Source of the DNA: Escherichia coli
GTDB lineage: Bacteria; Pseudomonadota; Gammaproteobacteria; Enterobacterales; Enterobacteriaceae
NCBI RefSeq assembly: GCF_009931435.1
Contig: NZ_CP043414.1
DNA length: 64,000 bases
Reading direction: 5' to 3' (one strand)
The position numbers were made by a program, and so were the translations under genes. The notes beneath the pieces are model-generated. The model saw only the letters and a list, made by a program, of their open reading frames with translations. It was not told where the DNA came from and did not search any database. Positions 1,528-41,562 of this stretch are shown one piece after another (the first letter of the stretch is position 1; every line of letters begins with the position of its first letter).

Positions 1528-4680
<3,153 letters not shown>

Positions 4681-39145: not shown

Positions 39146-39176
39146 ATAAAAAAGGTGCTACGGCACCTTTTTTATT
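39146..39176 (+). terminator. Rho-independent terminator of the cyo operon
   Basis: aaaaaaggtgc-tacg-gcacc-ttttttatt directly after the cyoE stop. Confidence 0.75.
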
Positions 39177-39212
39177 GTCTGAGAACAGAGATACGGCTAA
39201 TAACCGTATCTC

Positions 39213-39241
39213 TTGACAGAGTGAGTATATGCACATAAATT
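39213..39241 (+). promoter_or_regulatory. Putative sigma70 promoter of the antitoxin-toxin operon
   Basis: TTGACA-N17-TAAATT about 75 nt upstream of the antitoxin ATG, immediately preceded by a 9-bp inverted repeat (gagatacgg-N7-ccgtatctc, 39188..39212). Confidence 0.4.
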
Positions 39242-39317
39242 AATCATTCGGTTGATAGCCGTATTATGCATGAGATCGACTCCCTACGATTTCATTCAGT
39301 TAATCAAAGAGGTCATA

Positions 39318-39629
39318 ATGCCTGGAAAAACAGTCGCTCTACCCGATATCGATAAAACGCTGAAAAATGCGCGGGTTGAACTCAAAACCAGTCCCGACGC
39401 CAAAAACAAACTTCGTGAAGCTGCGCAAGCCGTTGGGGTAGATTTAAGCGCTTTTATTTTGAGCGCAGCTATGGAACGCGCCGAAAGTGTGCTTGATAAC
39501 CAACGTCGCCGTGAGCTTTCGAATCAAAGCTGGGAACTGATGAACCAACTCATCGCTGAACCTGCTCAACCGACGCTCGCCCTCAAGGCGTTAATGAAAA
39601 GGAAAAACAGCGATGGTCGACAAGCATGA
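39318..39629 (+). CDS. Putative type II antitoxin, DUF1778 family (TacA/AtaR-like ribbon-helix-helix), 103 aa
   Basis: ATG 39318 preceded by RBS aaagagg; product MPGKTVALPDIDKTLKNARVELKTSPDAKNKLREAAQAVGVDLSAFILSAAMERAESVLDNQRRRELSNQSWELMNQLIAEPAQP... has the size and pattern of DUF1778 antitoxins; 17-nt overlap with the downstream GNAT gene. Confidence 0.75.
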   Translation: MPGKTVALPDIDKTLKNARVELKTSPDAKNKLREAAQAVGVDLSAFILSAAMERAESVLDNQRRRELSNQSWELMNQLIAEPAQPTLALKALMKRKNSDGRQA

Positions 39630-40155
39630 AGAGATTACTCTGCCCATAGTCCTCTCCTGTAATTATCAGTCTGATATTACTTATCCTGGGCAAAAACAGT
39701 TTGATTGCGGTAACCCTGTTATCGATAAATTTGTACGCGCATCGCTAAAGAAAAGTGTGCGTAATAGCGACTGTGCTGCTAAAGCACTTATTGACAGACA
39801 AAGTGGTGAACTGATTGGCATCTGTACTTTTACGGCATATTCGCTGGAAAAACAACGCGTTTCTGGCGTCCTTCAGGGTTCACAACCTTCAGAGATTGGT
39901 GTTGTCAGATTAGTCATGTTAGGGGTAGCGCGGAAATATCAAAAGCGGGGCTTTGGTCAGGACCTACTATGTGATTTTTTTGAACATGTAAAAATAATTC
40001 ACCGGGCATTACCAATTAAAGGGGTTTATCTTGATGCTGACCCTGCCGCCATTAACTTTTATACTCGTCTCGGCTTTGTTCAGCTTTCAGCGAGGCCCAA
40101 TGTTTTCGGTGCTGTACCGATGTTTTTAGCGATTCAGCATATTCTCGCGGCTTAG
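39613..40155 (+). CDS. Putative GNAT-fold acetyltransferase toxin (TacT/AtaT/ItaT-like), 180 aa
   Basis: MVDKHEEITLP...FDCG...RLVMLGVARKYQKRGFGQDLL...INFYTRLGF carries the GNAT acetyl-CoA motif (R/Q-x-x-G-x-G/A); start overlaps the antitoxin stop, typical of translationally coupled TA pairs. Confidence 0.75.
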   Translation: MVDKHEEITLPIVLSCNYQSDITYPGQKQFDCGNPVIDKFVRASLKKSVRNSDCAAKALIDRQSGELIGICTFTAYSLEKQRVSGVLQGSQPSEIGVVRLVMLGVARKYQKRGFGQDLLCDFFEHVKIIHRALPIKGVYLDADPAAINFYTRLGFVQLSARPNVFGAVPMFLAIQHILAA

Positions 40156-40210
40156 ATTATTATCGCCTCCGGCCATGGCAAGTTTTGCCTCAGCCGGGGA
40201 CTGAGCAGCG

Positions 40211-41146
40211 TTACCACTTTTGTTCAATTGCCCCCGCTTTCATCAGGTCCACATCCTTGCCTTTAATGGTTGCCGTTGCGGCAACCATTGTGGTCCTTAT
40301 TGCTGCACAAGATTTTCGTTCAAATTCCGGTTTATAAAGAATAAGCAACGAATTACTGGTAAATGAATCAAGCCGGTAATCTGTAAAGTTAATATCCAGT
40401 CGGTTTAAGCCGAAAGGTGCAAAGCCGACCGTTTGAATAGTTTCCTTACCTGACGGACTCTTGATGTTGTACGTAACACGAAGATTGGCCACTTCGCCTA
40501 ATTTATTGGTTTTGGCAAAGAGGCTATCCATGCAGGAAAAACCTTTATCTAAAAAATTATCCCGCATTCCAGAACGGGTAATCGTGATCACAGGTAACGT
40601 ATCGTCAACCGTTTTTCTGTCAATCATATCTTTTCGACAGGTGGCCATAAAGTCTTCCGGACCAGTATAAATGTGAACACCCTTATCAAGATATTCTTTC
40701 GCTTTACTACAATCCACCTCGACATACTGACCATTGGCGTACATCATGCCCAACCTGGACCATGCTAAATTCACACCGCGTTGCGTAGCCTGATTAAATA
40801 ACGCATACGCTTTGGCATAATCCACCCGCACCTGTTCACCTTCGTAGTAGATATCCCCCAGCGCTAACGGAGCTTCTTCATCACCTTGTTTAGCGGCTAA
40901 CTCGAACCATTTAATGGCTTCCTGAACGTTGGGTTTGGTATCGTAGCGGGGCTGATAATATTCCCAGCCTAACAGGCTTTGCGCGTCGACATCCCCCGAC
41001 TCAGCCATTTTATACAGTGTCCTTATCACATCGGGGGCAGGCTTTTCACTGTATATGCTGTCATACAATTCATGCGCTTTCTCGCTTGCCAGTGAACCTT
41101 GTGAGGCAATTAATAAAATAGCCAATAAACTCTTTTCATTTAACAT
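40211..41146 (-). CDS. Secreted Sel1-like repeat (SLR/TPR-like) protein with an unassigned C-terminal domain, 311 aa
   Basis: N-terminal Sec signal peptide (MLNEKSLLAILLIASQGSLA|SE); Sel1 repeats (LGWEYYQ..., LGDIYYEGEQVRVDYAKAYALFNQATQRG, LGMMYANGQYVEVDCSKAKEYLDKG); C-terminal 160 aa unrecognised; convergent with the TA operon. Confidence 0.75.
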   Translation of the reverse strand: MLNEKSLLAILLIASQGSLASEKAHELYDSIYSEKPAPDVIRTLYKMAESGDVDAQSLLGWEYYQPRYDTKPNVQEAIKWFELAAKQGDEEAPLALGDIYYEGEQVRVDYAKAYALFNQATQRGVNLAWSRLGMMYANGQYVEVDCSKAKEYLDKGVHIYTGPEDFMATCRKDMIDRKTVDDTLPVITITRSGMRDNFLDKGFSCMDSLFAKTNKLGEVANLRVTYNIKSPSGKETIQTVGFAPFGLNRLDINFTDYRLDSFTSNSLLILYKPEFERKSCAAIRTTMVAATATIKGKDVDLMKAGAIEQKW

Positions 41147-41562
41147 AAATAACCTTTATGCATCCATCACTATATTTTTCAATAAACCTAACCACCAAAC
41201 ATCCACTTCATGAATAAATACACAGCCATAACAACCTCAGGTAATAAGTAAACATTTAAGCTGAAGCAGAATAACCAGCACCTCCAACACCTCTATTTAT
41301 TGCGATAAAATAACACCATCCTTTAATAAAAAATCACACGCTCATCAACAAATCCGAAAATAATATCATTCGTGGCAGGATAAAATCAGGCGAGCTTTTC
41401 ATTTGTTATATTTAACGCACAAAGTATTAATGGCAAGAATACGAGGGAAGCGCATGCCTGACGTAAAAATCACGCTCTTATGTAATATTTACTCATTAAC
41501 ACTCTGTTTACCCAACATGCGCTCCGCACTACACTATGTGGGCAATTTTTTAAGAGGTGGTA

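Follow-up and report, generated by a model that had tools for sequence, protein, structure and literature searches.

An exported Sel1-repeat protein with a probable IrmA-like C-terminal domain in the cyoE-yajR slot of Escherichia coli

The DNA examined here, a stretch of 64,000 nucleotides from an Escherichia coli chromosome (RefSeq assembly GCF_009931435.1, contig NZ_CP043414.1; the window), carries between cyoE and yajR a gene for a predicted exported protein in which Sel1 repeats are followed by a rare beta domain, probably of the IrmA type. The gene occupies positions 40211..41146 of the minus strand, where the listing of open reading frames (ORFs) gives a complete coding sequence (CDS) that begins with ATG and encodes 311 residues before the stop, exactly as an earlier reading made from the letters alone (the sequence-only reading) had placed it. 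An AAGG motif resembling a Shine-Dalgarno sequence can be read 7 nt 5' of the start, and in complete E. coli genomes the RefSeq label of this CDS is simply 'tetratricopeptide repeat protein'. To the left of the Sel1 gene lie cyoABCDE and to the right yajR, yajQ, panE, yajL and thiI; the gene is divergent from yajR and convergent with the cyo-side genes, and forms a common operon with neither. Its GC content (0.439) and especially that of its upstream region (41147..41483; 0.350) are low against those of cyoE (0.538) and yajR (0.525), in agreement with the AT-rich character noted at first. The upstream region is island-specific, being absent from K-12, and is presumed to hold the promoter of the Sel1 gene; a consensus promoter scan called no sigma-70-like site there on the minus strand, which is uninformative, and tblastn and blastn detected no remnant in it of the long paralogue that other genera carry.

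The gene is part of an accessory segment of 2.3 kb (39174..41483) that also holds itaR and itaT; at its place between cyoE and yajR, K-12 has, by blastn, about 28 bp instead. This segment is present in about 1366-1369 of the 5426 complete E. coli genomes; the Sel1 gene itself is found in 1369 of them (25%), near full length in 1362, and is missing from K-12. The allele of the window is the rarer one: at an identity of at least 90% it occurs in about 21 genomes, and the other 1348 carry an allele that is about 89% identical in DNA. The matching places for the gene number 1382, of which one is on a plasmid and not on a chromosome, with a few genomes having two places.

At its N-terminus the protein reads MLNEKSLLAILLIASQGSLA followed by SEK, with a basic n-region, a hydrophobic core (residues 7-16; mean Kyte-Doolittle value 2.35) and S-L-A at positions -3 to -1. 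The predicted local distance difference test score (pLDDT) of AlphaFold2 is below 50 at residues 1-19, and equivalent N-termini are found in every full-length homologue; together, these features support the Sec-type signal peptide cleaved after SLA that had been called from the letters (residues 1-20; 41087..41146, minus strand). The Sel1 repeats recognised after it are likewise borne out, Pfam finding three of them (PF08238; residues 54-89, 95-124 and 131-155) within a solenoid that spans residues 37-155 (40682..41038, minus strand). Sequence matches to the PDB are confined to residues 25-157, the best being the E. coli Sel1 protein c5321/EsiB (4BWR), and beyond residue 157 there is no PDB sequence match.

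Structure prediction separates the remainder from the solenoid. In a full-length AlphaFold2 model (14-sequence alignment; pLDDT 83.7, predicted template modelling score (pTM) 0.82), eight helices covering residues 37-178 form a cap, three repeats and a closing helix, mostly at pLDDT above 90, and after helix 166-178 come eight beta strands in residues 187-310. A second model, of residues 160-311 (22-sequence alignment; pLDDT 83.9, pTM 0.79), has the same layout. Helix 166-178 is present in both models, within a segment of closing helix and linker (residues 158-183; 40598..40675, minus strand), and the beta domain of seven to eight strands, delimited by the models and by profile comparisons, takes up residues 184-311 (40214..40597, minus strand). 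What the sequence-only reading had described as an unassigned C-terminal domain of 160 residues does contain a separate, cysteine-containing domain without further Sel1/TPR (tetratricopeptide) repeats, but its first 25 residues or so are the end of the solenoid and the beta domain proper measures about 128 residues. The models suggest that this domain is an immunoglobulin (Ig)-like beta-sandwich, an assignment more secure than the homology to IrmA discussed below.

Four cysteines, C146 in the solenoid, C170 in the closing helix and C205 and C280 in the beta domain, are invariant across the family, at 100% down to about 28% identity; the first two are kept in 14 of 14 aligned sequences. From sequence, such conservation fits an oxidising compartment, and the cysteines would pair as C146-C170, which would tie the last repeat to the helix that ends the solenoid, and C205-C280, internal to the beta domain. 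Scans with Pfam, NCBIfam and PADLOC revealed no catalytic motif or enzyme-family match in the Sel1 protein. The NCBIfam matches that did appear, to MerG, AlgK and MotX, reach 20-33 bits against cut-offs of 330-700, reflecting generic Sel1 similarity rather than membership, and a PADLOC match to PtuA (E 3e-4, residues 119-158) was set aside as helical-repeat noise, no single stretch of it passing.

The C-terminal domain is rare. Its profile found only 34 clusters when 1.84 billion cluster representatives were searched, so that the homologues are not ubiquitous housekeeping proteins of known function. Full-length family members (263-598 residues) begin with a signal peptide, continue with Sel1 repeats whose number differs from protein to protein and carry the domain at the extreme C-terminus; among the full-length matches, the domain is seen only behind Sel1 repeats, never alone or with another fusion partner. 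Matches of the domain profile to hemocyanin structures in the PDB (E down to 4e-5) were rejected: the individual stretches have E values above 400, and the score arises from a 20-residue 'FC-F-V-F' motif summed over the repeated hemocyanin units. A protein of 5899 residues (P0077) that matched in six stretches (E 1e-3) probably owes its match to the same summing over repeats. Shortened copies of the gene are frequent in certain lineages (P0017, P0014 and P0018) and may be pseudogenes or fragments cut off at contig ends; a Shigella sonnei protein of 193 residues, annotated 'SEL1-like repeat protein, partial', has 377 member sequences.

A relationship of this domain to IrmA emerges from the family. 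The sequence-only reading had recognised no match for the C-terminal half, which holds for the window sequence in Pfam and the PDB and does not hold for its relatives: when family members were scanned singly, 5 of 22 matched PF18673 (IrmA) at E<=0.1, with a lowest E value of 6.4e-5, already corrected for the size of the library. The relative P0049 is found by the family profile at E 5e-37 and is clearly homologous to the window domain; its residues 385-479 align with positions 15-102 of the 109 of PF18673 (88 positions; E 0.001). For a direct comparison, we built an alignment of 20 IrmA sequences around IrmA of strain CFT073, confirmed as PDB 5EK5, and hhalign joined it to the family at E 0.0015 over 85 columns. 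The score of 26.2 was reached by none of 200 column-shuffled IrmA controls (12.1 +/- 2.4, maximum 18.8) and by one of 200 controls shuffled in blocks of 8 columns (15.7 +/- 3.1); the reversed IrmA alignment scored 13.1. In the hhalign alignment, C46 and C105 of IrmA (precursor numbering) line up with the family-invariant C205 and C280, and 'LTITLQLKDKYG' is paired with 'LRVTLxLKNxxG', as is 'ATEESNGHRVSL' with 'ATATINGKDVDL'. These two cysteines correspond to Cys21 and Cys80 of mature IrmA, a sandwich of seven antiparallel strands resembling fibronectin type III (FNIII) domains, whose Cys21-Cys80 disulfide is 'unlike other FNIII-containing proteins' (PMC4807369).

On these comparisons, we consider it likely that the C-terminal domain is a distant homologue of IrmA (c1275 of uropathogenic E. 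coli (UPEC) CFT073; PF18673; PDB 5EK5; PMC4807369). Both are exported proteins of Enterobacteriaceae; the Ig/FNIII-like sandwich of about seven strands in IrmA would have its counterpart in the seven to eight strands of our models; the cysteines of the intradomain disulfide of IrmA align with the pair in the domain; and the profile similarity over about 85-88 positions is weak but reproducible. A number of observations nevertheless weigh against this relationship. The C-terminal 152 residues of the window protein have no Pfam match even at E<=10, nor does a scan of the full-length protein give one there; the precomputed PF18673 annotation is found on no family member; and the hhalign probability for the family against IrmA is only 17-20%. 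Searches of hidden Markov models (HMMs) against sequences, run between the family and IrmA with shuffled decoys, did not cleanly tell real sequences from decoys, a decoy being ranked first. Many Ig-like domains have a disulfide that links strands B and F, making the cysteine match less specific than it looks. Setting and architecture differ as well, IrmA being a stand-alone mature protein of about 128 residues that forms a domain-swapped dimer, encoded downstream of agn43-yeeR in pathogenicity islands and regulated by OxyR, whereas the domain described here ends a Sel1-repeat protein encoded in the cyoE-yajR slot.

The domain might instead be an Ig-like sandwich unrelated to IrmA, with convergent strand patterns and a generic B-F disulfide. 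The low hhalign probability, the missing Pfam match of the window sequence, the decoy that outranked real sequences and the single block-shuffled control at the real score all speak for such an origin, which we hold to be unlikely while granting it real weight. It must, however, account for a library-corrected Pfam E value of 6.4e-5 and for the 88 of 109 model positions aligned in a clear homologue, for the failure of all 200 column shuffles to reach the real score, and for both cysteines and the motifs L-x-[VI]-T-L-x-L-K-[ND]-x-x-G and A-T-x-x-x-N-G-x-x-V-x-L occurring in the same order in two families that are both exported in Enterobacteriaceae. This alternative bears on ancestry only and is compatible with every functional reading considered below. 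As a separate observation, the pathogenicity island PAI-serX of CFT073 encodes another 'SEL1-like repeat protein' (378 residues, C_RS05955), followed by a hypothetical protein of 180 residues (L010 44723-46437); some 10 kb further downstream in that island follows the agn43-yeeR-irmA cluster.

The Sel1 gene is functional and under purifying selection. When the window allele is compared with the common allele, taken from the enterotoxigenic E. coli strain B7A (L012), the ratio of nonsynonymous to synonymous divergence (dN/dS) of the whole gene is 0.20 (dS 0.41, dN 0.083), and for this reason we take it to be a functional gene rather than a chance ORF. Between the same strains, dN/dS is 0.10 for itaT (dS 0.10, dN 0.010), 0 for cyoE (dS 0.12, dN 0) and 0.01 for yajR (dS 0.23, dN 0.002). 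Within the Sel1 gene, the repeats (residues 54-157) have a dN/dS of 0.11 (dS 0.37, dN 0.042) and the beta domain (residues 184-311) one of 0.22 (dS 0.36, dN 0.080); neither the whole-gene nor the domain values carry a gene-wide signal of positive selection. The signal peptide is the most diverged part of the protein, with 35% identity between the alleles, and the upstream region (41147..41483) is about 74% identical in nucleotides between the two E. coli alleles. The divergence from B7A is mosaic, that of the Sel1 gene and its 5' region being far above that of itaT, cyoE and yajQ (dS about 0.1). This pattern implies that the Sel1 alleles either are much older than the backbone or were swapped by recombination, with breakpoints that take in the 5' end and the promoter region; the choice is then between recombination that replaced one allele by the other and a balanced polymorphism of long standing.

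The cyoE-yajR slot is also occupied in other genera. In a metagenome-assembled genome of Pseudocitrobacter (L014), it contains a long paralogue of 494 residues, an orthologue of 308 residues and then an ItaRT-like pair. Two related metagenomic contigs have, in one case (L004), genes for 494 and 308 residues with the antitoxin gene only and, in the other (L007), genes for 484 and 308 residues on either side of a split gene (145 + 144 residues), with no toxin-antitoxin pair. In assemblies of Salmonella enterica and in a contig resembling Salmonella (L015, L016 and L008), the slot encodes proteins of 481 and 497 residues, with a hok gene as well in L008. In three further NCBI assemblies (L017-L019), where, as in Salmonella, phn genes stand beside yajL, the array comprises 496 residues, 484 residues, an exported protein of 326 residues, a remnant of 116 residues and again 496 residues. 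Paralogues of the same array share just 38-40% identity. Searching genome contigs with the closer family alignment gave only two species representatives, which makes this a shallow taxonomic survey. Because family members share the slot in Pseudocitrobacter and Salmonella, we take the locus to be an old one, in which genes were lost, duplicated or replaced by other alleles in particular lineages, and the family to be fast-diverging and often duplicated in tandem. The sequence-only reading had judged the composition consistent with horizontally acquired DNA; the accessory distribution and the low GC content agree with that suggestion, but the slot shared with Pseudocitrobacter and Salmonella speaks against a recent foreign import.

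Several details of these arrays may be recorded. The exported 326-residue protein inside the Sel1 array (L017 11001-11981; also in L018 and L019) shows no more than a weak similarity to NTF2/SgcJ, confined to the N-terminal half, and its counterpart in L007 (7001-7978) is the one split into ORFs of 145 and 144 residues, probably a pseudogene. The 116-residue ORF (L017 12179-12529) is what is left of a C-terminal domain of the short type, and its tail (DLLKADSVRFLDKE) is identical to that of the Salmonella 481-residue type, which suggests recombination between paralogues. Two Salmonella-like contigs (L008 2204-2359, L009 312-467) have a toxin gene of the hok/gef family (PF01848) with yajR on one side and the Sel1 array on the other; it represents a second, different addiction-type module at the slot. 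Two guessed Salmonella locus tags, STM0437 and STM0438, showed no tie to the slot genes and were discarded. At the locus of the most distant member examined (P0054, 598 residues; L022), the gene is followed by an ORF of 125 residues and then by an exported protein of 228 residues (2686-3372) with a faint MORN_2 repeat signal, on a contig that is short. Repeats of the MORN_2 type are known from some immunity or antitoxin-like proteins.

The pair convergent with the Sel1 gene consists of itaR (39318..39629, plus strand), encoding a ribbon-helix-helix antitoxin of the DUF1778 type, and itaT (39613..40155, plus strand), encoding a GNAT toxin that acetylates aminoacyl-tRNA; the two genes overlap by 17 nt. 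RefSeq annotates the antitoxin as DUF1778 / TacA family, and its PDB matches are KacA and AtaR-type / DUF1778 antitoxins. In a phmmer comparison, PDB 7BYY, the structure of ItaT from E. coli HS (PMC7367177), matched the toxin over residues 1-180 at E 1.3e-115, and the two are in essence the same protein; because of this identity in sequence, we conclude that the pair is the characterised ItaR-ItaT system. The same system is present in BL21(DE3) as ECD_00377/8 (PMC6125619, which describes its physiological role as unknown), and neither of the two ItaT papers (PMC6125619, PMC7367177) mentions the Sel1 gene. Convergence with a toxin-antitoxin pair, already noted from the letters, is confirmed by the ends of the toxin gene at 40155 and of the Sel1 gene at 40211. 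The 55-bp spacer between them contains a GC-rich hairpin (40150..40205; -24.3 kcal/mol, z = -2.26 against shuffles) that was not called by a terminator scan based on T-tracts and that may, on weak grounds, be a bidirectional terminator. ItaR-ItaT adjoins the Sel1 gene in E. coli and Pseudocitrobacter as separate genes that form no part of the Sel1 protein, and the linkage is lost in other genera, so that neither depends on the other as an obligate functional partner. Since the linkage is not universal, we do not think a mechanistic coupling with the Sel1 gene likely; ItaR-ItaT probably serves as an addiction module that stabilises the 2.3-kb segment in Escherichia and Pseudocitrobacter.

How could such a protein work? 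The reading that best explains the whole, and that we hold with moderate confidence, is that of an exported binding protein made of two modules, the Sel1 solenoid and an IrmA-like sandwich. Export by Sec and cleavage of the signal peptide would yield a mature protein of about 32 kDa, and oxidation of the DsbA type after export could then staple the solenoid through C146-C170 and form C205-C280 inside the sandwich. In the resulting extracytoplasmic module, the groove of the solenoid and the beta-sandwich might each offer a surface to a protein ligand; a pure binding role is proposed because there is no catalytic signature. As for the ligand, a host or other extracellular protein is the class we would prefer, because EsiB for the repeats and IrmA for the sandwich, the closest characterised relatives and both exported by E. 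coli, bind host immune proteins. IrmA binds IL-2, IL-4 and IL-10 in vitro (PMC4807369). The likeness to EsiB (c5321 of CFT073; PDB 4BWR) is that of the best solved-structure match (residues 44-147; summed E 9e-45 over repeated matches) and of another E. coli protein of Sel1 repeats, but the 467-residue chain of EsiB is all Sel1 repeats with no beta domain and is encoded at another locus, so that the match is one of repeat consensus and not of orthology. EsiB reportedly binds secretory immunoglobulin A. By analogy, the preference for a host or other extracellular ligand is tentative at best. More speculative is the proposal that the slot houses a diversifying family of Sel1 + IrmA-like proteins that bind host mucosal immune proteins, in the manner of EsiB and IrmA, and we would call it improbable as it stands. 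To be set against the two-module reading as a whole is the presence of the Sel1 gene in the commensal strain HS and the laboratory strain BL21(DE3), the gene hence not being specific to a pathotype.

Arrayed exported proteins of this kind invite a comparison with immunity proteins. Sel1-repeat immunity proteins of the Tli5b type neutralise phospholipase D effectors of the type VI secretion system (T6SS); they too are exported, are often tandemly duplicated and diverge fast. The family could by this comparison, made from description only, consist of orphan or arrayed periplasmic immunity proteins against an interbacterial toxin that acts in the periplasm, with the slot as a diversifying immunity array. 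The tandem arrays of two to three paralogues at 38-40% identity, with their remnants and chimeric fragments, would suit this role, as would the unusually high divergence of the E. coli alleles (dS 0.41 against about 0.1 in the flanks), the export signal, and an accessory gene that travels with an addiction module. Yet Tli5b-type proteins are encoded next to their effectors, and in the roughly ten neighbourhoods examined for effectors and T6SS (the window plus L001, L004, L007, L008, L012, L014, L015, L017, L020 and L022), the toxin-antitoxin pair and hok supplied the only toxins, and neither an effector nor a secretion system was found, nor any CDI (contact-dependent inhibition) or Rhs gene. 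Among the PDB matches of the window protein, none bears the name of a Tli5 protein. This is also the outcome of the neighbourhood survey that the sequence-only reading had suggested as a check: secretion systems and effectors do not co-occur with the family at these loci. In addition, dN/dS values of 0.1-0.2 give no sign of diversifying selection, and we know of no Sel1 immunity protein with an Ig-like domain. We therefore regard immunity as an unlikely function.

A periplasmic adaptor, with the solenoid scaffolding or regulating an endogenous envelope machine and the beta domain as docking module, is in our view rather less credible. MotX, AlgK and MerG are Sel1/TPR proteins that serve envelope machines, and it is to these periplasmic proteins that the sole NCBIfam similarities point, all far below the cut-offs; the locus beside the cyo operon and yajR is kept across genera, and the gene is under purifying selection. 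The NCBIfam matches, however, reflect the generic Sel1 repeat only, the gene is in operon with neither yajR nor the cyo genes, it is present in 1 to 3 copies depending on the genus, and its absence from 75% of E. coli genomes, including K-12, means that no core machine can depend on it. Decay to a remnant without function, which truncated copies in some lineages (such as the 193-residue 'partial' protein of Shigella sonnei) and the 116-residue remnant of the L017 array might evoke, can practically be dismissed for the window copy against a full-length ORF in 1362 of 1369 carrier E. coli genomes, a dN/dS of 0.20 at a dS of 0.41 and four cysteines kept down to 28% identity.

Both building blocks of the two-module protein were already known, and the gene had been annotated generically. 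What we add is (i), the probable assignment, by sequence comparison, of a rare orphan domain to the IrmA-like fold; (ii), a Sel1 + IrmA-like architecture without earlier description; and (iii), the recognition of the cyoE-yajR slot as a conserved and dynamic home of the family across Enterobacteriaceae. A literature search for the likely locus tags or accession of the Sel1 gene, and for Sel1 together with IrmA, found nothing. Carriers make up about a quarter of E. coli genomes, including BL21(DE3) and HS, and relatives occur in Salmonella and Pseudocitrobacter, yet the gene has no other label than 'tetratricopeptide repeat protein'. The locus itself is a clear case of an old chromosomal slot that has undergone duplication, loss and allelic replacement.

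If the IrmA-like fold is correct, the orphan domain would gain a structural and evolutionary home, the IrmA family would widen from small stand-alone proteins to a fusion architecture, and a concrete hypothesis would follow, namely extracytoplasmic binding of a ligand, possibly a host immune protein. Should the more speculative proposal of binding to host mucosal immune proteins also hold, commensal and pathogenic E. coli, Salmonella and their relatives would possess a polymorphic locus that modulates immunity, and the IrmA fold would turn from a peculiarity of UPEC into a module used repeatedly for binding to the host.

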